From the NCBI GenBank assembly GCA_947588935.1, contig CANQAU010000002.1:1-41878 (forward strand): a stretch of DNA of 41,878 nucleotides, read 5' to 3'. The translations under genes and the position numbers were made by a program. Shown in pieces: positions 4,823-32,238 of this stretch. The DNA comes from an uncultured Bacilli bacterium. GTDB taxonomy: Bacteria > Bacillota_I > Bacilli_A > RF39 > UBA660. Each line of letters opens with the position of its first letter. The first letter of the stretch is position 1. The notes below the pieces were generated by a model. It had not been told where the DNA came from. It searched no databases and was given only the letters and a program-made list of their open reading frames with translations.

Positions 4823-5371
4823 TTAATCGCTTATTTTTAATACGGCGCTGAAGTTTTTGCCTCTATCATCCAACTGATCGGCATCTGTCTCTTTATAGGT
4901 GATGGTTAATGTAAAGTTTTTGGTTTCTCCAGAATTGATTTTTAATCCGGTTATTAAATCCGTATCATCTGTCGTTGTCGCTGGTAGTGTAACATTGTCT
5001 TCTTCGGATATTTCTTCATTTAATCCATCAGATAATGTAACAATTAAATCATCTTGATTTACAAAGTTATTGATTACGCTATCCCATACCAAACGGTAAG
5101 TAATGGTTCCACTACCGGAATTGGTTACTTGAAATGTTTTGGTTACTTTATCGCCAGGAATGAGATTTTCTCCCGTTATGACACCGTCTTTGTCTGTTAG
5201 AGAAAATTCAATTTTTGCTCCGGTTATCTGTGTGTCAAAGTCCGTTTCTGGCATCTTGATTGTTGATGTGAAAAAGGCATATGTTCCAGAGATAACAATT
5301 CCAATTAAAATTACGATTGAAATAATCAATGTTATTACTAGCAAGCGATTATTTTCTTTTTGTGGTTCCAT
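4823..5371 (-). CDS. secreted TasA/camelysin-like protein with SipW-type signal peptide
   Basis: The N-terminus has a basic stretch, one hydrophobic helix, then SGTYAFFTSTIK (compare the GGTFAYFSD / GGTWAAFND cleavage region of CalY/TasA). LIPGDKVTKTFQVTNSGSGT resembles the TasA-family L(K)PGD...F.F.N.G strand. C-terminal strand RGKNFSAVLKISD. SD AGGTGA. Confidence 0.6.
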   Translation of the reverse strand: MEPQKENNRLLVITLIISIVILIGIVISGTYAFFTSTIKMPETDFDTQITGAKIEFSLTDKDGVITGENLIPGDKVTKTFQVTNSGSGTITYRLVWDSVINNFVNQDDLIVTLSDGLNEEISEEDNVTLPATTTDDTDLITGLKINSGETKNFTLTITYKETDADQLDDRGKNFSAVLKISD

Positions 5372-5442: not shown

Positions 5443-5934
5443 TCATGTATTGATGACAAATTTTCCAGTTATTTTTTTGCCCATATCGGTTTCATTGGTT
5501 GAAGGCTGATACCATAAAGTGATTTTGATGTTTACGGTACTGTGTGCGTTTATTGTAGCACCGTTTAACAAAGGACTATTTCTTTTGGGAAATACTTCAT
5601 GGTCCACCATTGGTTTTTCATCTATCCACAGATTATATTTTAAAAATCGTTGTGCACTTAAAGGATTTTTTAGGTTGTCTACTGCTAATGTATATTTTTT
5701 GTCGACATCATTGTCATTGGTTATTTGCAGTTTTATTTCTTGTTGAATCTCTTGGAATCCCATTTCGAATTGAAAGGTTTTTTCTTCCATTTTTAATGGT
5801 AAATCGGTAGTCATCGGTTCTGGCTTTTTTTCTTTTTGGGTATTGATGAAATAAATTGTTGATAGAATTATGATGCCAAGAACGAAAAAAGCAAACAGAC
5901 GCATTTTATCGGCTTTGGTAAGTTTTCTTTTCAT
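5443..5934 (-). CDS. membrane-anchored or secreted protein, distant member of the same beta-sandwich family
   Basis: I trimmed the track ORF (5443..6075) to the internal ATG at 5934 (MKRKLTKADKMRLFAFFVLGIIIL...). That start has SD AGAGGA and removes the 134-nt overlap with trxB. It has a single N-terminal helix and the C-terminal strand MGKKITGKFVINT shared with the paralogs at 22.9-26.3 kb. Confidence 0.5.
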   Translation of the reverse strand: MKRKLTKADKMRLFAFFVLGIIILSTIYFINTQKEKKPEPMTTDLPLKMEEKTFQFEMGFQEIQQEIKLQITNDNDVDKKYTLAVDNLKNPLSAQRFLKYNLWIDEKPMVDHEVFPKRNSPLLNGATINAHSTVNIKITLWYQPSTNETDMGKKITGKFVINT

Positions 5935-5941
5935 ACATCCT

Positions 5942-6832
5942 CTATTTTTGACGACTGAAATGAATGGCAGCACTGGCTCCTTCTGCAGCGGCGGTAACAA
6001 TTTGATATACTTTTTTGATGATAATATCACCGGCGGCATAAATTCCTGGAACGGTTGTTTCATAATTGTCGTCAACCAAAATATATCCGGCTGGATTGGT
6101 GATATTTAAAGCAGAAGCAAAGTCTGTTTTGGGTGCATAACCAATGTAAATGAATAAAGCACTCACTGGAATCTTTTTTTCTTGATTGATTTCAATGCCA
6201 CTTAATACGCCATTTTCCGTTTGTAAATTGGTTACTTGGGAATTATATACGAATTCGACATTTGGACATTTTTTGATTCTTTTAATCAATTCCTCACTTG
6301 CTCGAAATTCATTACGACGATGAATTAAGTAAATTTTTTTTACCAATTTAGATAAGTATAGGGCTTCTTGTAAAGCACTATTTCCTCCTCCTACTACGGC
6401 GATTTCTTTTCCTTTATATAAAGCGCCATCACATAATGCACAGGTACTGATTCCTTTGCCAATTAACTGATCGATATTCGGTAAATCTAACAGAATGGGA
6501 CTTCTTCCGGTCGCAATTAAGACGTTTTTGGCGCGGTACGTATTTTGGGTCGTTTTGACGATCTTTTCCTCTTGATCGACAGATAATTCGATGACTTCTT
6601 CCATTTGATAAGGAATTTCTAAGGCATTGATCTGCTCAAATAGTTTCATTGATAAATCTGGTCCACTAATACTTGTATATCCTGGATAGTTTTCGACATT
6701 GTCAATAATGTTAATAATTCCTCCTGGACGTTCTTTCTCTAAAATTAACACATTTAATCCACCTCGTTTGGCGTAGATGGCTGCACTAATTCCTGCTATT
6801 CCCATTCCAATGATGATGGCATCGTAGGTCAT
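5942..6832 (-). CDS. trxB: thioredoxin-disulfide reductase
   Basis: 296 aa. FAD-binding motif DAIIIGMGIAGISAAIYAKR, redox-active CALCDG, NADPH-binding motif VVGGGNSALQEALYL, and C-terminal GIYAAGD. Confidence 0.92.
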   Translation of the reverse strand: MTYDAIIIGMGIAGISAAIYAKRGGLNVLILEKERPGGIINIIDNVENYPGYTSISGPDLSMKLFEQINALEIPYQMEEVIELSVDQEEKIVKTTQNTYRAKNVLIATGRSPILLDLPNIDQLIGKGISTCALCDGALYKGKEIAVVGGGNSALQEALYLSKLVKKIYLIHRRNEFRASEELIKRIKKCPNVEFVYNSQVTNLQTENGVLSGIEINQEKKIPVSALFIYIGYAPKTDFASALNITNPAGYILVDDNYETTVPGIYAAGDIIIKKVYQIVTAAAEGASAAIHFSRQK

Positions 6833-6844
6833 ATTTGTTCCTCC

Positions 6845-7666
6845 TTAAAAATTGATTGATTGTTGATTTTCTTCACTATATAAATCTTCAAATTTGCTTT
6901 TTCGACTTAAAATCATAAAGGCTAGCATGGCAATGACAAATAAGATAATGGATACAATTTGGGCGACGCGAAAGCCTCCTAACATGAGGGAGTCGGTTCG
7001 AATGGATTCAATGAAGAAACGTCCGAAACTATACCACATAAAATAAATACATGTTTGTTGGCCAATTTTTAAATAGCGATATTTCCGAACGATTAATAAA
7101 AGGATGACTCCTAATAAGCACCATAGTGATTCATAAAAAAAAGTCGGATGGTAATAGTGTCCATTGATATGTAAGCCTTCAATAATTATATTGGGGATAT
7201 GTAAGTTTTGTAAATTGGCAAGGGTTGTTTCAATTCCGTGGGCTTCTCCATTAAAGAAATTTCCCCAGCGACCAATTGCTTGGGCAAGTAAAACGGAAAC
7301 ACTCGCGATGTCGGTAATTTTAAAAGTATTGACATTGTATCGATGGCAATAAAAGGCAATGGTTAAAAAGCCAAAGAGAATTCCTCCATGGATGGCAAGT
7401 CCTCCTTCCCAAATCTTAAAAATGGATAAGGGGTCACTTTGATAAATGGACCAATTAAAGACAACATAATATAGTCTGGCTCCGATAAAACCAATAATCA
7501 TTGTCCAAAAGAATAAATTAAAAATAAAATCTGATGGAAAATTATGACGTTTTGCTTCTTTTTGTAATAGATAATATCCAAATAAGGCTCCCACTAAAAT
7601 TAAAACCGAGTACCATTTTACATCAAAATTACCAATGGAAAATATTACAGGATTTACTTGACTCAT
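6845..7666 (-). CDS. lgt: prolipoprotein diacylglyceryl transferase
   Basis: 273-aa polytopic protein. Motifs WYSVLILVGALFGY, GARLYYV, IWEGGLAIHGG and GRWGNFFNGEAHG are typical of Lgt. Confidence 0.92.
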   Translation of the reverse strand: MSQVNPVIFSIGNFDVKWYSVLILVGALFGYYLLQKEAKRHNFPSDFIFNLFFWTMIIGFIGARLYYVVFNWSIYQSDPLSIFKIWEGGLAIHGGILFGFLTIAFYCHRYNVNTFKITDIASVSVLLAQAIGRWGNFFNGEAHGIETTLANLQNLHIPNIIIEGLHINGHYYHPTFFYESLWCLLGVILLLIVRKYRYLKIGQQTCIYFMWYSFGRFFIESIRTDSLMLGGFRVAQIVSIILFVIAMLAFMILSRKSKFEDLYSEENQQSINF

Positions 7667-19144: not shown

Positions 19145-19681
19145 CTATATATTGATTCCTTTTTGCAATTCAAAAGCATAATTTAATGTTTTTCCTTGCA
19201 TTTCATTTCCAGTACGGTAATCCATCCACATTAATAAATTATAATCTTTTGTTTCACCGACGATGGAATCACTTGTGATTAAAAAATAATAATGATCTGC
19301 ATCTTCATACGTATACAATTCTTTTAAGGATTTGACTTCTGCTTGAAACAAAACATTTAAACAGTTATAATCTAAAGTTGAAGTTTTCGATACCTTCATT
19401 ATCAAATTAAAGTTTTCTTTTGTTAATGATTCATTTACTACGGAAATGGTCATTGGATTTAATGTATTGATGGCAACTTCATTATCCATTGGAAACATTG
19501 GTCCTTGTGGAGAATGGTTGACTTTTAAATAGGTATACTGGGCTTGATCATAAAAAGCAGCAGTGGATAAGTGCTCTCCAATATTTAATGTTTTCCATAG
19601 TGGATAACTAACAGCAATGACAACAAGCATCATGGTAATTTCAATTATTTTCCAACGAATAATTTTGTTAATTGTTTTCAT
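19145..19681 (-). CDS. small secreted protein, sixth member of the TasA-like family in the sipW locus
   Basis: 178 aa. One N-terminal helix, then HLSTAAFYDQ (compare TasA GGTWAAFND). C-terminal strand MQGKTLNYAFELQKG matches the family. The SD (GAGGGGG) sits rather far, 13 nt, from the ATG. Confidence 0.5.
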   Translation of the reverse strand: MKTINKIIRWKIIEITMMLVVIAVSYPLWKTLNIGEHLSTAAFYDQAQYTYLKVNHSPQGPMFPMDNEVAINTLNPMTISVVNESLTKENFNLIMKVSKTSTLDYNCLNVLFQAEVKSLKELYTYEDADHYYFLITSDSIVGETKDYNLLMWMDYRTGNEMQGKTLNYAFELQKGINI

Positions 19682-19749: not shown

Positions 19750-20616
19750 TTATTTCCGGCGTTTGCCTTTCTTATTTTTTGGTTTATTTTCTGATTTTTC
19801 ATCGTTGGTTTTTAATTTTGGAAGTACGACGGTATCTGCAAAATCATTTTCCTTTTCTTTTGGTGCATCCACGGTTACTTTCGTTAATTTGCGATGCGTT
19901 GGAAGTGGATCTGGTTCTTCTGAACTTCGATCTAAGTTATAACGACGTTTTAATTCTTGACGAATGGCTTCTTTCTTTTTCTTTTCGCGATTGGCAACTT
20001 TGGCTTCGCTTTGTAAAGCCGTATTGACTTTTTTCTTTGCTCCTGTTAACCGGAAAATCTTTAAGATATCACTTAGAATGATAAACAAAGCCGGAACGAC
20101 TACTACGACTAACCAACCTGATGAAGTTGCTAAAAACTGTTGCAATTTTCCAAGTTGAGGAAGTTTTAAAATGACTTTTCCTTTAATATTTCGAAAAGGT
20201 ACTGTTGCTGTATCTGGTGTTGGGTTATTGTCTCCTTGCGTACGGTATTCGATGCCATTTTCGGTTTCAGCAATTCCGACCACCCGGTGAGTTACAATTA
20301 ATCCCTTGGAAATGGTACTGGTAGAAGTAAAGGTTATAATGTCGCCAATTTGAATATCTTCGGGTCGATTTACTTTGGCATTGACGATGACATCATATAC
20401 ATTTAAGTTTGGCGTCATACTTGGACTTACAATGGTATATAATCCAACGGCTGGAGAAAATTCTTCTCCTTTGCTTGCATAGATTTTATTCGCTACAAAA
20501 TAATATAATAAGAAACCGGCGATGAGTAAGAGAATGAGGAGTATTGTCCATGAAATAACATTTGCTATAAATTTAAAAATTTGCTTAAAACCATTATAGT
20601 TTTCGTGTTGTTTCAT
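19750..20616 (-). CDS. sipW: archaeal/ER-type signal peptidase I (SipW-like) with a long basic C-terminal extension
   Basis: SPSMTP (catalytic Ser box), IVTHRVVG (His box, Ser/His type rather than Ser/Lys) and QGDNN (box E). N-terminal and C-terminal TM helices are followed by approx 100 residues rich in K/R/E. SD AGGAAGGG. Confidence 0.8.
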   Translation of the reverse strand: MKQHENYNGFKQIFKFIANVISWTILLILLLIAGFLLYYFVANKIYASKGEEFSPAVGLYTIVSPSMTPNLNVYDVIVNAKVNRPEDIQIGDIITFTSTSTISKGLIVTHRVVGIAETENGIEYRTQGDNNPTPDTATVPFRNIKGKVILKLPQLGKLQQFLATSSGWLVVVVVPALFIILSDILKIFRLTGAKKKVNTALQSEAKVANREKKKKEAIRQELKRRYNLDRSSEEPDPLPTHRKLTKVTVDAPKEKENDFADTVVLPKLKTNDEKSENKPKNKKGKRRK

Positions 20617-20741: not shown

Positions 20742-21122
20742 TTATTCTTTGTTTTTGGATAATCGCAAGATAAAATTGACGATTTTGATATAAATTTCAA
20801 TGATGGAGAATGATAAGGCAAAAGCACTTAACCATTCATATTTTTTTGGTAATTTTGCTTCGATACTGTAATTAATGACTTCAAAATCGACTAATAAAAA
20901 TAAAGAGGCAATGATGGCTTCTGCGGTATTGATGTTGTAGGTATCTACTGCAACCGTTTCGTTTGGTAACACTTTGGGTGTGAGGAAAAAGACGGTTACT
21001 CCGACTAGCGTTAATACAAGAAAGAATATGGTTTTCCCAATGATTCCACTTGCTGTACAAGCAGGATCCCCACTTTCTTCAACTTTATTGATTTTAGCAA
21101 TCATTGGATTTGCTAAAAACAA
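20742..21122 (-). CDS. hypothetical small membrane protein (weak call, TTG start)
   Basis: 126-aa ORF filling the gap between the Ca-repeat gene and sipW. It has two or three hydrophobic segments and a TTG start with a weak SD AGGAAAA. I recognise no family. Confidence 0.3.
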   Translation of the reverse strand: MFLANPMIAKINKVEESGDPACTASGIIGKTIFFLVLTLVGVTVFFLTPKVLPNETVAVDTYNINTAEAIIASLFLLVDFEVINYSIEAKLPKKYEWLSAFALSFSIIEIYIKIVNFILRLSKNKE

Positions 21123-21242
21123 CTCAAATTTTCCTAATTTTGAATTTACTACGCCATATAAACTCTACTCCTTTCTATTTTCATTAGAAAATTTTCTTTT
21201 AGTACCTGTCAACAATCCACAAAAAAAGAGCAATTTCTTGCT

Positions 21243-22844
21243 CTAATTTGCTGCTTCCACTTCAATTCTGGCCGTATAGTTTTTACCCATGTTGTAGTCT
21301 TGGTTTACTCCCGTTTCTAAGAAATCATATTGTAGTTCATAACTATAAGTCATTCCTGCTGGAATTAAGACATTTTTTAATAAGTATGTATCGGTTGTTG
21401 GTGCTGTATTTCTTCCTGTTAAAGTAATTCCATCTCTACGAATAGAATATACAAAATCACTTGGTGGATTGAAGGTATTACTTACTCCAGTTAATTTGAT
21501 GTTATAGAACAATGTTTGATTTGAACGGTTATTTACAGTAAAACGCATTGTTCCACTCCAACCTGGTTTTGCATCTTGAATATCAATTTTATTTAAATAT
21601 GAAACATATAGGATATTGTTATTTTGACTGGTAATGTCGATGCTTCCATCGCCTTCCGTTCCTAATGTACAATTTAATTCACATTTTCCATCATTATCGG
21701 TATCGACATTTTTATCTGGTTTACCATCATTATTGGTATCGACATTTAAATCTGGTTTTCCATCGCCGTTGGTATCCACATTTAAATCTGGGAAGCCATC
21801 ATTATTGGTATCACAGTTTAAATCACATACTCCATCTTTGTTGGTATCTTGATTCATTAAATTGTCATCTGGATTTTTATCTCCATCCGTATCTTTATTT
21901 ACGTCTGGTGTTCCATCTTTATCTACATCTAGGTCAATATTTGGTTTACCATCTTTATCGGTATCAACATTTAAATCTGGATTGCCATCGCCATCCATAT
22001 CGACATTGACATCTGGATGACCATCATCATTTGTATCACAGTTTAAGTCACATACTCCATCATTGTCGGTATCTTGATCCATTAAATTATGATCTGGTGT
22101 TCCATCGCCGTCGTTATCTTGATTGAAATGAGATTTATTATCGCCACCGTAATCAACATTTTTATCTGGTTTGCCATCATTATTGGTATCCACATTGACA
22201 TCTGGTGTTCCATCGCCATCGGTATCCACATTTAAATCCGGTTTGCCATCGCCGTCGGTATCGATGTTGGTATCTGCTTTTCCATCCCCATTGTTGTCAA
22301 TATTTAAATCTGGTTTGCCATCCCCATCGATATCGATGTTGGTATCTGGATAACCATCTTTGTTGGTATCACAATTGACATCACAAACTCCATCGCTATT
22401 ATTATCTTGATTCATGTGGTTAAAATCTGGTTTTTTATCATAATTGGTATCGATGCCAAAATGAGGAATTCGATCATGATTATAATCGATGTTGTAATCT
22501 GGTTTACCATCCCCATCACTATCACAATTGACATCACAAATGTTATCTCCATCTAAATCAATATTTAAATCGGTTTCACCATTTCCATCCGTATCACAGT
22601 TTAAATCGCATTTTCCGTCGCCATTGAAATCACAATTCAGTCCACATGTTTTTCCGCCTTCAATTGCTCCACCATAAAGGCGAATATAAGAATATGTGGC
22701 TCCAATCATTGCTAAAAATAAGATTAATAAGCATAGCAAGATAATTATAAAGGTTTTCTTCTTGGCTTGTTCTTGCTCTTCTGCTAAAAGCTCTTGATAT
22801 TGCTCTTCGAAATCGATATTTTCTACTGGCTTATTCTCTTTCAT
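21243..22844 (-). CDS. secreted Asp-rich Ca-binding repeat protein (thrombospondin type 3-like repeats) with a TasA-like C-terminal domain
   Basis: 533 aa. Signal/anchor FIIILLCLLILFLAMIGATYSYIRLY, then about 26 units of approx 12 aa (LNVDTDGDGKPD), some carrying CDxNCD. The last approx 125 aa form a beta-rich domain ending MGKNYTARIEVEAAN. SD AAGAAGGA. Confidence 0.8.
   Translation of the reverse strand: MKENKPVENIDFEEQYQELLAEEQEQAKKKTFIIILLCLLILFLAMIGATYSYIRLYGGAIEGGKTCGLNCDFNGDGKCDLNCDTDGNGETDLNIDLDGDNICDVNCDSDGDGKPDYNIDYNHDRIPHFGIDTNYDKKPDFNHMNQDNNSDGVCDVNCDTNKDGYPDTNIDIDGDGKPDLNIDNNGDGKADTNIDTDGDGKPDLNVDTDGDGTPDVNVDTNNDGKPDKNVDYGGDNKSHFNQDNDGDGTPDHNLMDQDTDNDGVCDLNCDTNDDGHPDVNVDMDGDGNPDLNVDTDKDGKPNIDLDVDKDGTPDVNKDTDGDKNPDDNLMNQDTNKDGVCDLNCDTNNDGFPDLNVDTNGDGKPDLNVDTNNDGKPDKNVDTDNDGKCELNCTLGTEGDGSIDITSQNNNILYVSYLNKIDIQDAKPGWSGTMRFTVNNRSNQTLFYNIKLTGVSNTFNPPSDFVYSIRRDGITLTGRNTAPTTDTYLLKNVLIPAGMTYSYELQYDFLETGVNQDYNMGKNYTARIEVEAAN
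21645..22649 (-). repeat. in-frame tandem 36-nt (12-codon) repeat array encoding DxDxDGxxD units, arranged in three approx 90-100-aa super-repeats
   Basis: Recurrent gatggtaaaccagat / gacggcgatggcaaaccggat-type units occur on the minus strand. Three blocks each start with N(H/L)M(N/D)QD..DGVCD(V/L)NCDTN.DG.PD. Confidence 0.85.
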
Positions 22845-22908
22845 AATTGTCCTTCTTTCGCTAACCTATTCTACGTATGATTATAGCATATTTCTTTTCT
22901 TTTTAGCA

Positions 22909-22938
22909 ACAAAAAAAATCTATTTCAAAAATAGATTT
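22909..22938 (-). terminator. intrinsic terminator after paralog 4
   Basis: Stem aaatctattt (22916-22925) / aaatagattt (22929-22938). A T-run follows on the minus strand (A-run 22911-22915 on plus). Confidence 0.6.
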
Positions 22939-22951
22939 CTTACTTTGATTT

Positions 22952-23638
22952 TTATACTGCTAACATTGCTGATATTTTTCCGGTTAATTTTTTACCAAAA
23001 TCATCATTTTGGTCGTTTCCTTTTTCAACATATTCAGCAACAATATAATAATACTTTTCCACCGTGGTTTGATTTGCCGTAATATGAATTACATCATCAT
23101 TTAAAATGGCTGTCGTATCATTTCCTTTTAATTTGGTTGTACCAATTAATTTTCCCAAACTAGATTCTTTTGAATCACAGGATTCTTTGTAATGCACAGT
23201 TCCGACACCATTTCCTGTTTCTTCTTTTTTACAATTGAAGAATCCAGCAGTGGCACTCACATCCGTATCGGATTCATATAATGTTAATTTGATGGCATCA
23301 TCTTCAAAAGCATTGGTTCCATCCCATTTGATGTTGATACTAGATGTTGCAACTTGACTGTTTTGTTGAGCATTTACGGTTATTTTTAATGCAGCGACTT
23401 CTTTATGACCCGGATAAACATCGTCTGCTTCAAACGAACCGGCTGATTTGGATGCGACACCCACAATGGTCGTACTTGCTACGTTACTTGCAGTAATACT
23501 TGTTGAACCATTGTTTCCTCCACTACCACGCTCATCTCTAATGGTTGCAGTAAAGTATGCAAACGTTGCACCTAACACTGAAATTAAAAGTGTTGCTATG
23601 GCAATTACGGTTAATATGATTGAGTTTTTTCTTTCCAT
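22952..23638 (-). CDS. secreted TasA-like paralog 4 (228 aa)
   Basis: MERKNSIILTVIAIATLLISVLGATFAYFTATI. Motifs DVYPGHKEVAAL, a Cys pair (FNCKKEE...YKESC), YYYIVAEY, and C-terminal QNDDFGKKLTGKISAMLAV. SD AAAGGAGA. Confidence 0.75.
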   Translation of the reverse strand: MERKNSIILTVIAIATLLISVLGATFAYFTATIRDERGSGGNNGSTSITASNVASTTIVGVASKSAGSFEADDVYPGHKEVAALKITVNAQQNSQVATSSINIKWDGTNAFEDDAIKLTLYESDTDVSATAGFFNCKKEETGNGVGTVHYKESCDSKESSLGKLIGTTKLKGNDTTAILNDDVIHITANQTTVEKYYYIVAEYVEKGNDQNDDFGKKLTGKISAMLAV

Positions 23639-23831: not shown

Positions 23832-24539
23832 TTAAGCAGCTAATTCTACAGAAATTTTACCTTCGAGTGTTTTACTAAAATCAGCATTTTGAGTTGAAGA
23901 TTTATTGATGTATTCTACTACAACATAGTAATAAACTGTTTTTCCAGTAGCACTACCAGTAATTTCTTGCCCTGTAAATTCAACTTTTTCGCCACTTAAA
24001 AGTTTTGTTTCTACAAGTGTTGCACCAGATGTTATTAATTTATTTGCAGAAGCACTCGTCCAATCATTACATTTATCAATGTAATGAATTTCTGTTTCTG
24101 TTGAACCTACATCATCAATGGCATGATTACAAGTAAAGTAATTATCTGTTGTTGCTATTGGAGTATCTTCTTCTGGTTCATATTTGTATAAATGAATATT
24201 GAAACTTTCTGCTGAATATTCATTTTTGGTTGCTTTATAAATAATATTAAATTTACTTATAGCATTTTCCGTAGATGTTGCTTGTACCGATAGTGCTGCA
24301 ACTTCAACATGTCCTGGATAGGCATCATCTTCACTAATATTCGCAGCAGCAGTTTCTACGTTTGCAATTATCGTATTACTTGCTACAGAACCAGCTGTTA
24401 CATTTGTTTTACCTTGATCTTCACCATATTTCTCCGTATTGATTGTTGCAGTGAAGTATGCAAATGTTGCTCCCACTACAGCGACAAGTAGGGTTGCAAT
24501 GGCAATTACTGTTAACAAGATTGTGTTCTTTCTTTCCAT
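23832..24539 (-). CDS. secreted TasA-like paralog 3 (235 aa)
   Basis: MERKNTILLTVIAIATLLVAVVGATFAYFTATI. Motifs DAYPGHVEVAAL, a Cys pair (FTCNHA...YIDKC), YYYVVVEY, and C-terminal QNADFSKTLEGKISVELAA. SD AAAGGAGG. Confidence 0.75.
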   Translation of the reverse strand: MERKNTILLTVIAIATLLVAVVGATFAYFTATINTEKYGEDQGKTNVTAGSVASNTIIANVETAAANISEDDAYPGHVEVAALSVQATSTENAISKFNIIYKATKNEYSAESFNIHLYKYEPEEDTPIATTDNYFTCNHAIDDVGSTETEIHYIDKCNDWTSASANKLITSGATLVETKLLSGEKVEFTGQEITGSATGKTVYYYVVVEYINKSSTQNADFSKTLEGKISVELAA

Positions 24540-24712: not shown

Positions 24713-25435
24713 TTAAGCGGCAAGTTTCACACTTACTTTACCTTTAAGTTCTTTGCTTTGACCTGTTGATGTTTGATTGCCATTATTTTTATATTCTACT
24801 ACAACATAAAAATAATAATCTTTGCCTTCTTCACTACCAGCTAATGTACCATCATAGATTATTTGATCTGTGATTTGTCCAGTTGTTAGTGGAGTTGTTG
24901 TTGGTTTTGAATCACCAAAAGTTGTTGTTTCTTCTTCTGCTGAACAAGTTTCAGAATATTGAATTTTTTGAGTATTTTCTTCTCCACCAGTGCTAGTTAC
25001 TTGCTTTTTGCATTTGAAGAAACCAACTTCGTCATCTTGATTTCCTGAAGCATCTATGGAAACCAAAGTTTCATCCTTTTTATAAACTCTTACTTCAACA
25101 TCACTTGTTGGGAATCCATTTGTTCCATTCCATACAATTTGAATATGACTTGATGCACTTGTTTCTGATGTTACTTTAACGGCTAAAGCTGCAACTTCTT
25201 TATGTCCTGGATAAACATCTGCTACGGTAAATTTACCTGCATTTTCTTCAACGTTACTAACAACAACAGTTTCAGCTACAGAACCAGATGAAATATTGGT
25301 TTGGCCTTTATCTTCGGTACCATCACGATTATCCGTGATTGTTGCAGTGAAGTATGCAAATGTTGCTCCCACTACAGCGACAAGTAGGGTTGCAATGGCA
25401 ATTACTGTCAACAAAATTGTATTCTTTCTTTCCAT
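24713..25435 (-). CDS. secreted TasA-like paralog 2 (240 aa)
   Basis: Same 33-aa N-terminus as paralogs 1 and 3. Motifs DVYPGHKEVAAL, a Cys pair (FKCKKQ...YSETC), YYFYVVVEY, and C-terminal KELKGKVSVKLAA. SD AAAGGAGG. Confidence 0.75.
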   Translation of the reverse strand: MERKNTILLTVIAIATLLVAVVGATFAYFTATITDNRDGTEDKGQTNISSGSVAETVVVSNVEENAGKFTVADVYPGHKEVAALAVKVTSETSASSHIQIVWNGTNGFPTSDVEVRVYKKDETLVSIDASGNQDDEVGFFKCKKQVTSTGGEENTQKIQYSETCSAEEETTTFGDSKPTTTPLTTGQITDQIIYDGTLAGSEEGKDYYFYVVVEYKNNGNQTSTGQSKELKGKVSVKLAA

Positions 25436-25600: not shown

Positions 25601-26287
25601 TTAAGCAGCAAGTTCAACTGAAACTTTACCTTCTAGTGATTGACCCATTTCAGCATTTTGTTCGTCATCATTTGTGTATTCAACTACTATATAATAGTAA
25701 GCAGTTTTTCCAGGGTCTTCAGCTCCAGTAATGGTATCAGAAGCTAAAACTACTTCTTCTGCATTACCTTTTAAGGTTGTAGTTGTTCCAACTTGAGAAG
25801 CTCCAGTTAAGTTGTTTGTAGTAGCATTTGTCCAACCTGAACAAGTTTCAGAATATTGAACAGTTTCTGTACCAGTAACTTGCTTGTCACATGAAAATTG
25901 TGTTGCTGTTGTTGTAATTGGTGTGTCGCTTTTCATAACGTAAACTTTTACATGTGTTCCAAGATTGTTCGTCGTTACATTATACTTAATGTTAATCTTT
26001 ACAGGTGCATTCGTATCTGATTTCGCTGTTACAGATAATGCTGCAACTTCAACGTGTCCTGGATAAACATCAGTTGCGGTAAATTTACCAGCAGCGTTAT
26101 CTACGTTAGCAACGATCGTTTCACTTGCTACAGATCCAGCTGTTACTTTTGTTTCACCTTGTCCGCTGCCAGCTGTACGATCATCTTGAATTGTTGCTGT
26201 AAAGTATGCAAATGTTGCTCCTACAACTGCTACCAATAATGTTGCAATGGCAATCACTGTCAACAAAATTGTGTTTTTTCTTTCCAT
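25601..26287 (-). CDS. secreted TasA-like paralog 1 (228 aa)
   Basis: Same N-terminal peptide as paralogs 2 and 3, but encoded with many synonymous differences. Motifs DVYPGHVEVAAL, a Cys pair (FSCDKQ...YSETC), YYYIVVEY, and C-terminal QNAEMGQSLEGKVSVELAA. SD AAGGAGG. Confidence 0.75.
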   Translation of the reverse strand: MERKNTILLTVIAIATLLVAVVGATFAYFTATIQDDRTAGSGQGETKVTAGSVASETIVANVDNAAGKFTATDVYPGHVEVAALSVTAKSDTNAPVKINIKYNVTTNNLGTHVKVYVMKSDTPITTTATQFSCDKQVTGTETVQYSETCSGWTNATTNNLTGASQVGTTTTLKGNAEEVVLASDTITGAEDPGKTAYYYIVVEYTNDDEQNAEMGQSLEGKVSVELAA

Positions 26288-26398: not shown

Positions 26399-27412
26399 TT
26401 ATTTTACGATTAAATTTGGCAATCCAAAGTAAATTTCTTTTTCTTGATTTTTGATGATGATGGCGTAATCTTCATAAATATAGTATTTTGATTGACCTTC
26501 TTGTGAAAGAAAACTGACAATTTGATTTTCTTCCTCGTCTTTTTCAATACTTGATATTATTTGGTCAATGGTTATTTTTTTATTTAATAAAGCTTCTTTT
26601 AAGGTATAACTTTTCTTTTCGATATTAATCCATAAGTCTCCATAAGCATAGATATTGAATGATTTTTCATCCTTTTCTTCTCTGGTGTAAATGGTTTGTA
26701 ATTCATTGGTGTTTTTATATTGAATTTGAAAATTTTTTTCCTTTCTTTCTTTTGGTTGATAATCGGATATGGAAATTCGTTTTCCATTTTTGGCCATGAG
26801 TGATATCCCATTTTCTACAGATATATCTAGTGAATATGTTTTTGCCGAATATTCTTTTCTTATCATTTTTTGAGATGCCAGTTCATCTCTTTTGGAATCT
26901 ATTTTTACAATAAATAATTCATTTTCATAGGAAAGACTAATCAAGATTGGTTGTCCTTCTGTATTCGTTTTCATCAGACGAATTTCATCTTTTTTTTGCT
27001 TGGTAATATTTTCTTTGAACTCTTTTAAAATGTATTCATTATAGGAAATTTCTTCGATGAGAACATAGTAATCTTTGGTGATAGCATCTCGATAAGAAAA
27101 TTCAAGTGGTTCTTCTTCCAATGCATTTAAATATCTTGTTTCTTCTTTTTGTTCTTCTTTTAATGTTTCATCATATTTTAAATTCAAAAAGCCGATATGA
27201 GATTTATGATATCCATTTAATTTATTATACGAAATGACTTTATACCCTAAACATAGATATTCCACGGTACCACCATCGCGATATACTTTTTCGGTGATAC
27301 AAAAAACTGGAGCATGATTACGCTTCACTTGAGTATAATCAATTATAAAAATGACGATCCATGAACAGATGATGAATAAAGTGATCATGGTTCCTTTTTT
27401 CCAATTTTTCAT
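26399..27412 (-). CDS. hypothetical N-terminally anchored protein
   Basis: 337-aa ORF. N-terminal helix TMITLFIICSWIVIFII followed by APVFCITEKVYRDGGTVEYLCLGYKVISY. I do not recognise the family and the SD is weak. Confidence 0.5.
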   Translation of the reverse strand: MKNWKKGTMITLFIICSWIVIFIIDYTQVKRNHAPVFCITEKVYRDGGTVEYLCLGYKVISYNKLNGYHKSHIGFLNLKYDETLKEEQKEETRYLNALEEEPLEFSYRDAITKDYYVLIEEISYNEYILKEFKENITKQKKDEIRLMKTNTEGQPILISLSYENELFIVKIDSKRDELASQKMIRKEYSAKTYSLDISVENGISLMAKNGKRISISDYQPKERKEKNFQIQYKNTNELQTIYTREEKDEKSFNIYAYGDLWINIEKKSYTLKEALLNKKITIDQIISSIEKDEEENQIVSFLSQEGQSKYYIYEDYAIIIKNQEKEIYFGLPNLIVK

Positions 27413-31725: not shown

Positions 31726-32178
31726 TTATCTTGTTTTATTCACGAGAATTTGTCCTTCTTGTAAATAGATTGTTGGATTTTGATTTAATAACCGTTCTTT
31801 ACTAATTTGAAACATTTTTGATACGATGTTTAGTGTATCTCCTTCTTTGGTAATGTAATAACTATACTCTGCTTTGGGAATTAAGATTTCTTGTCCGGGA
31901 TAAATATAATCTTCCATATCTAGACCATTTAACCCTGCTAATAATTCTGGATTAATATTGTATCTTCTAGCAATTTTATAAATGGAATCTCCTTTTTCAA
32001 TGGTATAGTATAGAAAATAAGTATCTGAACTTTTAGGAACAACAATATCAGTTCCTTTTCTTAAAATGTCTTTTTCATTTAGGTTATTGATCTCTTGAAT
32101 GGCACTTGGATTGGTTGCAAATTTTTTGGCAATACTATTTACAGTGTCTCCCGATTTTATTTGATATTGGTCAAACAT
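31726..32178 (-). CDS. LysM-repeat (x3) peptidoglycan-binding protein
   Basis: Start moved to the ATG at 32178 (SD TAGGAGTG). Three LysM motifs: YQIKSGDTVNSIAKKF...INNL, YTIEKGDSIYKIARRYNINPELLAGLNGL and YITKEGDTLNIVSKMFQISKERLLNQNP. No signal peptide is seen. Confidence 0.75.
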   Translation of the reverse strand: MFDQYQIKSGDTVNSIAKKFATNPSAIQEINNLNEKDILRKGTDIVVPKSSDTYFLYYTIEKGDSIYKIARRYNINPELLAGLNGLDMEDYIYPGQEILIPKAEYSYYITKEGDTLNIVSKMFQISKERLLNQNPTIYLQEGQILVNKTR

Positions 32179-32238
32179 AACATCACTCCTAGTATAGCGT
32201 ATGTGAATTTTTTCGAATGCGTTCAAAAAAAGAAGAAA

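Follow-up and report, generated by a model that had tools for sequence, protein, structure and literature searches.

A Ca²⁺-loop-motif repeat protein with a distant TasA-superfamily domain, encoded beside sipW in uncultured gut Bacilli

Donor-strand fibres of the TasA type are an ancient matrix scaffold common to bacteria and archaea. In Bacillus subtilis, TasA polymerises by donor-strand exchange, and TapA, which is encoded beside sipW, both nucleates the fibre and anchors it (PMC9674648, PMC10151520). In archaea and bacteria alike, loci of the TasA superfamily usually encode minor subunits, tip proteins and anchors for membrane or wall as well (PMC12337348; bioRxiv 10.64898/2026.01.04.697558); some of these anchors, those proposed for Tafi pili, consist of a single transmembrane (TM) helix and a jelly roll (PMC12337348), and the AbpX clade shows calcium-responsive assembly (bioRxiv 10.64898/2026.01.04.697558). 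Anchoring and nucleation of such fibres are known only for TapA of B. subtilis, with proposals alone for archaea. Here we analyse a locus of this kind in a 41,878-nucleotide stretch of DNA (hereafter the window) from an uncultured Bacilli bacterium of the RF39 lineage (contig CANQAU010000002.1, assembly GCA_947588935.1), centred on a repeat protein encoded upstream of sipW. A SipW-linked, TasA-like fibre with accessory subunits is known already; what is new is a predicted Ca²⁺-loop rod between a membrane segment and a fibre-type domain, together with a conserved cytoplasmic motif.

The repeat protein is encoded on the minus strand (21243..22844, ATG start, stop codon included) and comprises 533 amino acids, which combine an N-terminal membrane helix, an array of Ca²⁺-loop motifs and a C-terminal jelly-roll domain. 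All of the following segments lie on the same strand. An acidic N-terminal tail, predicted to be cytoplasmic (residues 1–30; 22755..22844), carries a family-wide motif, here NIDFEEQYQELLAEEQEQAKKKT. It leads into a hydrophobic membrane helix (residues 31–58; 22671..22754) that ends in GATYSYIRLYG and may be a SipW-like signal or a signal anchor. The array of 27 units (residues 69–401; 21642..22640) is predicted from its sequence and from an AlphaFold2 (AF2) model to form a ladder or rod of Ca²⁺ loops, and the non-repetitive C-terminal region (residues 402–533; 21246..21641) contains, according to AF2 and profile comparison, strands followed by a jelly-roll body. The AF2 model was built from a 60-sequence family alignment as a monomer that carries no ions. 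Its mean predicted local distance difference test score (pLDDT) is 85, rising above 90 over residues 80–390 and low at 395–417, with a helix at residues 12–61 and a β-sandwich at 419–531. Exact-sequence look-ups of the window proteins found no record, and family members, where they are named in the source, are called "hypothetical protein". The combination of a DxDxDG-type array with a C-terminal domain homologous to neighbouring paralogs, which an initial annotation of the window had read from the letters, is confirmed by these data and those below.

On the minus strand, the locus runs from a DUF4362-like gene through four paralogs, the repeat protein, a BaxI_1 remnant, sipW and the gene of a 178-residue protein to uvrB. 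The four paralogs (228 amino acids, 25601-26287; 240, 24713-25435; 235, 23832-24539; and 228, 22952-23638; all minus strand) carry SipW-type signals and are presumed to be the major fibre subunits. The signal peptidase gene (19750-20616, minus strand) encodes a SipW-like (archaeal/endoplasmic reticulum-type) signal peptidase I of 288 amino acids that matches TIGR02228 at E 2.1e-27; the SipW model NF046067 also aligns to it (E 7e-24), below the model cut-off. Its cytoplasmic C-terminal tail, about 100 residues long, is rich in lysine and arginine.

Related loci were collected by exact-protein look-up of paralog homologs and by a one-genome-per-species scan with the paralog alignment; a genome-contig search with the single C-terminal domain yielded no confirmed locus. 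This gave 82 related loci, almost all from metagenome-assembled genomes (MAGs) labelled as uncultured Bacilli, "Tenericutes", "Mycoplasma sp. CAG:776" or Candidatus Caccenecus, and derived from human, rabbit, chicken, ruminant and mouse gut. A repeat protein was counted if it combined a membrane helix, at least five DxDxDG motifs and the C-terminal domain. By this definition, 43 of the 44 sipW-containing loci (window included) have it directly upstream of sipW, in the order paralog(s), repeat protein, sipW, with a median gap of 98 bp and one copy per locus. Genomic linkage of the repeat protein to a dedicated SipW-type signal peptidase I is thereby established, and the gene is kept in conserved sipW loci, a point on which the initial annotation had made its reading depend. 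With the repeat gene near-universal in these loci, the most economical assumption is that its product works in the fibre or on it. The protein is probably a fibre-associated accessory subunit with a Ca²⁺-loop rod, belonging to a SipW-dependent TasA-superfamily system of uncultured walled gut Bacilli. That it acts specifically as a cell-proximal anchor or stalk is a more tentative proposal, to which we give slightly less than an even chance.

The array spans 333 residues and consists of 22 units of 12 residues, three of 15, one of 11 and one of 13, with the consensus hN(h/C)DxDxDGxPD (h, hydrophobic), in which the Asn of hNh is near-invariant. The tandem 12-residue organisation described in the initial annotation was recovered; its count of about 26 becomes 27. 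The generic Dx[DN]xDG calcium-loop motif is present well beyond compositional expectation: 21 units fit the pattern D.[DN].[DN]G..[DNE], against 0.84 ± 0.91 (maximum 5) in 2000 composition-preserving shuffles, and residue identity at lag 12 is 0.47, against about 0.05–0.1 at neighbouring lags. Fourteen of the 15 cysteines of the protein fall into seven C-x3-C pairs (residues 67/71, 79/83, 103/107, 154/158, 265/269, 340/344 and 388/392). In each pair, the first Cys stands in place of the Pro in GxPD and the second in place of the second hydrophobic residue of the next hNh. Three higher-order blocks of ~75 residues start at residues 141, 252 and 327 with FNHMNQD.., HNLMDQD.. and DNLMNQD.., respectively, followed in each case by ..DGVCD(V/L)NCDTN.DG.PD. 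Both the CD(L/V)NCD pairs and the three blocks had been noted at the outset and stand as described. At the motif level, the array is a generic Dx[DN]xDG calcium loop for which Ca²⁺ binding is predicted, a loop that binds Ca²⁺ in many unrelated folds (PMC3123361).

Profile searches placed the array in no described family. Three repeat sub-segments searched at E<=10 matched only FG-GAP (6e-5), FG-GAP_3 and, weakly, EF-hand_5, and these matches are confined to the 10-residue calcium loop. With the whole protein, the only NCBIfam matches were to Ser-Asp repeats of staphylococcal adhesins and reflect composition. The array contains no GGxGxDxUx nonapeptides of the RTX β-roll, and no RTX family of Pfam or NCBIfam was matched; nor does any model in these two databases describe the 12-residue repeats. 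For the protein family, the C-terminal domain and the 12-residue repeat alike, we found no curated model and no solved structure, and a search of the literature on the repeat sequence or on TasA in RF39-type bacteria gave nothing relevant.

Using DSSP on the AF2 model, we observed one β-bridge pair (E-x-E) per 12-residue unit, located on both hydrophobic residues of hNh, and the modelled array accordingly takes the form, at a pLDDT above 90, of a regular ladder to which each unit contributes a single short hNh strand. In its Ca²⁺-bound form, the array would be a stiff, highly acidic, solenoid-like rod with stacked hNh strands, within which the near-invariant Asn residues would form a ladder of their own and each DxDxDGxPD loop would hold one Ca²⁺. 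At roughly 0.48 nm per unit, such a rod would measure ~13 nm. Foldseek with the full-length model returned generic jelly rolls and no match for the repeat rod.

The initial annotation had likened the repeats to thrombospondin type 3 (TSP3) units and had expected the gene to be prone to repeat-number variation. A rival reading along these lines is a true TSP_3/TSP3_bac protein whose repeat tract serves as a strain-level length contingency locus. The DxDxDGxxD motif is indeed there, the blocks open with N.M(N/D)QD.D.DGVCD.NCD, reminiscent of the NxxQxDxDxDGxGDxCD of TSP3, and Tandem Repeats Finder detected periods of 36, 72 and 225 nt in the gene, the first of them in frame. Neither TSP_3 (PF02412) nor TSP3_bac (PF18884) was matched, however, by the whole protein at E<=1 or by the three repeat sub-segments at E<=10. 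A phmmer search of residues 141–301 against all PDB chains at E<=10 likewise found no thrombospondin or COMP chain, only filamin-C at chance level, and the contiguous 12-mer with its C-x3-C pairs is unlike the TSP3 pattern. The likeness therefore stays at the level of the motif, and membership of TSP3 was rejected.

Sequence length speaks against the other half of that reading. The DNA copies of the repeats are only 72–81% alike. Three independent samples carry an identical 522-residue repeat protein, all five species-level relatives at 88–99% identity have 535 residues, and most relatives at 55–87% identity have 520–536, with two exceptions of 461 and 425. The motif count ranges from 8 to 70 and varies only between distant clades. 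Since the unit number is stable among close relatives, a hypervariable contingency repeat was rejected as well; the conserved length argues instead for selection on rod length, and 520–536 residues across most relatives at 55–99% identity is what would be expected of a fixed-length spacer. A TSP3-type contingency locus is largely refuted, and we regard it as very improbable. Across the family, lengths are bimodal, at about 535 residues (about 21 motifs) and about 866 residues (41–42 motifs), which suggests duplication of the whole array. Some members are much longer, at 949–1279 residues (L010 2938-5787, L019 1883-5329, L046 8797-12636), and contain a C-x3-C pair in nearly every unit, 39–60 pairs in all.

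The same 12-residue DxDxDG array was also seen in unrelated architectures (P0123, P0133, P0140, P0203), namely an 873-residue protein with a C-terminal multi-TM region and surface proteins with MucBP, Flg_new or RCC1-like domains. Judged by these unrelated hosts, the array behaves as a mobile stalk module in Firmicutes. Such hosts, together with the extreme net charge of the array (−72), would also suit a stand-alone Ca²⁺-binding surface protein that acts outside any fibre, as a wall Ca²⁺ buffer, a mineral or host-matrix adhesin or an envelope spacer, and that has only its secretion route and an ancestral domain in common with the fibre genes. The repeat gene may, moreover, have transcription signals of its own: a promoter-like site matching the consensus (TTGCTA-18-TATAAT with an upstream TG; 22880..22909, minus strand) lies just upstream of its start codon, and a terminator-like hairpin followed by a T-run (21227..21244, minus strand) directly after its stop codon, although promoter-like sites of this kind are not enriched relative to shuffles. 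We consider a stand-alone function improbable in view of the near-universal placement of the gene between the subunit genes and sipW, its single copy per locus, as expected of an accessory subunit, and the complete fibre-type domain with which about 100 members invariably end.

In the AF2 model, that domain comprises two strands of low confidence at its N-terminal side, SIDITSQNNNILYV, and after them a jelly-roll body of eight strands. Compared pairwise or with shallow alignments, it showed no significant resemblance to the paralogs (E 0.018 over only 36 columns). When 102 family domains were aligned with 120 paralog homologs using hhalign, the two profiles matched with a probability of 93.9% and an E-value of 1.5e-7 over 111 columns, domain positions 25–138 corresponding to paralog positions 68–227. 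On this profile evidence, the ~115 residues at the C-terminal end have homologues in the four upstream paralogs, which bears out the resemblance first seen by eye. In a full-length search, about 102 of the best 120 matches end in the ~125-residue domain, preceded by a membrane helix and by the same repeats in varying number; these proteins are 300–704 residues long. The architecture, conserved in about 100 proteins, is thus old and widespread in the family; a local gene fusion was rejected, and the description of the protein as chimeric, in that sense, was not upheld.

The link from this domain to TasA itself passes through relatives. A word-indexed protein search with the C-terminal 139 residues alone gave nothing and missed even known relatives, which reflects the limited reach of that tool. 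When the domain was searched exhaustively by phmmer, 586 representative clusters were reached, in many of which the domain stands directly behind a SipW-type signal peptide, either in proteins of 170–200 residues or at the N-terminus of multidomain surface proteins of 500–1250 residues. Pfam PF12389 (Peptidase_M73, camelysin/TasA) was matched at E<=0.001 by 61 of 86 such N-terminal-domain relatives, one of which spans profile positions 9–180 of 196; the 533-residue protein gave no PF12389 match, and neither did its C-terminal 139 residues at E<=10. Motifs in register with the TasA family, L.PG..T..F.V.N.S and a C-terminal NQ..D.GK.F.A.IEVE, are present. Foldseek with the 533-residue model found generic jelly rolls (E about 2e-4), the same ones as were found with a paralog model, which in addition retrieved the TasA-like archaeal bundling pilin AbpA (7ueg_A, E 8e-3, probability 0.84). 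In the paralog model, too, confidence is low in the N-terminal strands (residues 25–53); such low-pLDDT strands ahead of the body, at 395–417 in the repeat protein, are compatible with donor-strand complementation in these models but not diagnostic of it. Transitive homology and genomic context together place the C-terminal domain, as a remote member, within the TasA superfamily; membership of PF12389 itself could not be demonstrated. The earlier label "TasA-like" is supported indirectly, by the relatives' PF12389 matches and the jelly-roll model, but not by any direct match to TasA.

The position of the array relative to this domain is informative. The two strands that precede the PGW motif, SIDITSQNNNILYVSY, lie after the repeats, and their equivalent, TQITGAKIEFSL, is found in a 182-residue protein encoded elsewhere in the window. 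A complete TasA-like module therefore follows the repeats, and the array is inserted between the membrane or signal segment and an intact domain, at the position where TasA has the hinge between donor strand and body (PMC9674648). In several members (P0121, P0146, P0152, P0159), a Cadherin-like β-sandwich (PF12733) intervenes between the array and the C-terminal domain, so the junction tolerates extra modules. The 182-residue open reading frame (ORF; 4823-5371, minus strand) matches PF12389 at 31 bits, TIGR04088 at 17.2 bits, below the cut-off, and the hidden Markov model (HMM) of the C-terminal domain, and the ORF beside it (5443-6075, minus strand) matches the domain HMM at residues 111–209. 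These two form a second TasA-like gene pair, 16 kb from the sipW locus, whose products may be what the repeat protein really polymerises with.

At the other end of the protein, residues 1–30 are charged and acidic (NIDFEEQYQELLAEEQEQAKKK), and the hydrophobic helix of residues 31–58 ends in MIGATYSYIRLYG. The motif (D/N)(Y/F/L)(E/Q)EQY..LL.EEKE..KK(T) is present in all 42 distinct family members aligned; it lies in a predicted cytoplasmic tail of 25–30 residues and is kept across clades whose paralogs are only 31–55% identical. The N-termini of the paralogs lack this acidic tail motif and consist of a short MERKN n-region, a helix and GATFAYFTAT. TIGR04088 recognised a paralog N-terminus at 19.6 bits (cut-off 19), with the 182-residue ORF falling below the cut-off, and at E<=10 matched neither the N-terminus of the 533-residue protein nor those of two orthologs. 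What the repeat protein and the paralogs have in common is G-A-T-(F/Y)-(A/S)-Y at the outer end of the helix. Of the SipW-type signal that had been assigned, the GATYSY/GATFAY likeness holds and the model match does not, and the segment could at least equally well be a signal anchor that is retained, or a targeting signal of a specialised kind.

This N-terminus bears directly on whether the protein is a secreted minor subunit. SipW would then cut after GATYS(52) to give a mature protein starting with YIRLYGG..., with the short N-terminal strand as donor and the C-terminal jelly roll as acceptor; the protein would be a TapA-like long-armed nucleator, a tip protein or adhesin, a spacer or a fibre cross-linker, in each case with the Ca²⁺ rod as its arm. 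An extended, conserved n-region is no obstacle in itself, since cleaved signal peptides of this build are known, among them YSIRK and ESPR. The common GAT motif lies exactly at the predicted cleavage site of the paralogs, the repeat gene adjoins sipW in 43 of 44 loci, and the array would be placed where the TasA hinge separates donor strand and body. SipW processes TasA as well as TapA in B. subtilis, where the N-terminal strand of TapA serves as a donor (PMC9674648, PMC10151520). Several features argue the other way. The lack of any TIGR04088 match is one; the motif after the helix is also degenerate in one large clade, where it reads GI(V/I)FSLSG, and YIRLY has only its first Tyr in common with the paralogs' YFTATI. 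An invariant cytoplasmic EQY..LL.EEKE motif would, finally, be hard to explain in a peptide that is discarded. We hold secretion as a cleaved minor subunit, the main rival to the anchor reading, to be possible but rather unlikely.

In the anchor or stalk reading that we prefer, the four paralogs would be the major fibre subunits, by analogy with TasA, and the repeat protein the single accessory subunit. Its C-terminal jelly roll would enter the paralog fibre through donor-strand complementation, the mode known from TasA, AbpA/AbpX and Tafi subunits; its N-terminal helix, with the conserved tail, would hold it in the membrane, permanently or until SipW acts, and the Ca²⁺-loaded rod would take the base of the fibre across the wall. 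In function, it would thus correspond to TapA and to the proposed "TM helix + jelly roll" Tafi anchors. We propose that rod length is conserved within clades because wall thickness is fixed. A Gram-positive-type wall would be there to span, since the window encodes a protein with two LysM domains (31726-32226), an LtaS-like sulfatase-family protein (625-2547) and Lgt (6845-7666), all on the minus strand. The organism thus probably has a peptidoglycan-containing wall of this type, despite the "Tenericutes" and "Mycoplasma" labels on related MAGs.

A number of observations weigh against this picture. As regards TasA, most of the relatives' PF12389 matches cover the signal peptide and the first strands, and hhalign of the family profiles against TasA reached at most 38% probability, with a TasA sequence checked to be identical to that of PDB entries 8AUR and 5OF1; weak as it is, the alignment sets LKPGDKLTKDFQFENNGS opposite AKPGWSGTMRFTVNNRSN, the register that would be expected. 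Three queries against PDB sequences, namely the profile of the paralogs, that of the domain and a relative positive for PF12389, brought up nothing meaningful, and TasA structures 5OF1 and 8AUR lay outside the Foldseek top 50 for both models. Because direct comparison with TasA is weak, the link rests on the Pfam matches of relatives. The domain is, moreover, closer to small camelysin-like proteins than to the four adjacent paralogs, which makes the true partner subunit uncertain. As regards anchoring, GATYSY at the helix end resembles the predicted SipW cleavage region of the paralogs, so cleavage may set the protein free, in which case it could not be a permanent membrane anchor, and the 533-residue protein contains no other wall-anchoring motif. 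As regards the rod, its shape in the model derives solely from the DSSP pattern; Ca²⁺ binding, the solenoid geometry and incorporation into the fibre are all features that we infer.

The sipW homologs of related loci (L001–L079) are mostly 250–370 residues long, compared with 190 in B. subtilis. Where their last TM helix could be placed, they have cytoplasmic C-terminal tails of 75–140 residues, most of them Lys/Arg-rich. The acidic N-tail of the repeat protein and the basic SipW tail, predicted to lie on the same side of the membrane, may dock. A bolder extension of the anchor reading, which we offer as speculative and improbable in its entirety, is that the array is a Ca²⁺-gated ruler at the donor-strand/body hinge, matched to the envelope, and that docking of the acidic tail on the basic SipW tail couples processing, anchoring and nucleation. 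The array length modes near 21 and 42 loops would then be matched to envelope thickness, and processing, anchoring and fibre nucleation would be coupled at one membrane site and switched by extracellular calcium. An assembly platform of this kind is not known from any TasA-type system.

Three further genes lie in or next to the locus. A 178-residue protein with an N-terminal membrane helix (19145-19681, minus strand) is encoded immediately downstream of sipW in 18 loci; profile comparison aligned it in register with the domain family over 92 columns without reaching significance (E 0.014), and it may be a further jelly-roll-like anchor or accessory subunit. A 126-residue ORF (20742-21122, minus strand) matches only the C-terminal part of Pfam BaxI_1 (positions 137–231 of 233, E 8e-15). 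It occupies the ~620-bp gap between the repeat gene and sipW, a gap of about 100 bp in related loci, and is probably what is left of a membrane-protein gene that was truncated or inserted. A 337-residue protein with a DUF4362 match (E 1.7e-7) is encoded upstream of the four paralogs (26399-27412, minus strand); this gene was not found in any related locus, and its product probably stands outside the fibre system.

The locus family occurs in dozens of uncultured gut Bacilli species, and a scalable Ca²⁺-loop-rod subunit would be a different solution to fibre anchoring or nucleation from that of TapA. If the preferred reading is true, uncultured small-genome gut bacteria make TasA-like fibres, and luminal calcium would have a testable link to fibre attachment or stiffness. 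The array would also be a new 12-residue Ca²⁺-loop solenoid module, recurring in other Firmicute surface proteins, that is without a Pfam model or structure.

Among known repeat folds, the RTX β-roll, the Ca²⁺-bound β-helix of MpAFP and the 12-residue, disulfide-braced β-helix of TmAFP are β-solenoids that are either Ca²⁺-dependent or very tight. The array resembles them in its short repeats, each with one strand and one ion-binding or braced turn, which build a scalable rod, and by analogy its folding would be expected to depend on Ca²⁺. Its consensus differs from the GGxGxDxUx, 19-mer and TCTxSxxCxxAx repeats of RTX, MpAFP and TmAFP, respectively, none of which was returned by Foldseek with the 533-residue model. 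With TSP3 and other proteins that use the generic loop (EF-hand, FG-GAP, dockerin, Excalibur), the array has in common tandem Asp-rich DxDxDGxxD loops and cysteine punctuation. It departs from TSP3 in its strict 12-residue period, the near-invariant Asn of its hNh strand and its C-x3-C pairs, and TSP3 forms the irregular "wire" of thrombospondin, whereas the array is modelled as a regular ladder.

The modelled jelly-roll body and the register motifs are like those of TasA/camelysin (PF12389; 5OF1, 8AUR) and of AbpA (7UEG), AbpX and Tafi. As here, TasA-superfamily loci contain a neighbouring signal peptidase I gene, several subunit paralogs and accessory proteins, and some members, such as AbpX, assemble on calcium. 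Unlike the PF12389 family, to which it is linked through relatives, the repeat protein gives no match to that profile. The TasA-family domain directly follows the signal peptide, whereas here it is C-terminal, behind a 333-residue insertion, and the Ca²⁺ that AbpX holds at the donor-strand/groove interface would here be bound in a separate repeat rod. The proposed Tafi anchors (TafF; Natrinema NJ7G_2829 and NJ7G_2831) come from archaea, depend on Tat and lack a repeat stalk between helix and jelly roll; no relation in sequence to the repeat protein was detected.

TapA of B. subtilis differs in several respects. No sequence relation was found between the two proteins; the body of TapA is a complete, non-polymerising Ig fold and that of the repeat protein a TasA-like jelly roll, and TapA has neither a Ca²⁺-loop rod nor the conserved acidic EQY tail. 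Cleavage by SipW is proven for TapA and only a possibility for the repeat protein. The two are nevertheless alike in their setting and layout: TapA, too, is encoded once per locus beside sipW and the major subunit gene(s) (tapA-sipW-tasA) and has a long N-terminal region before its hydrophobic segment. As we propose for the repeat protein, TapA has been proposed to be cell-proximal and to engage the major subunit by strand complementation (PMC9674648, PMC10151520).

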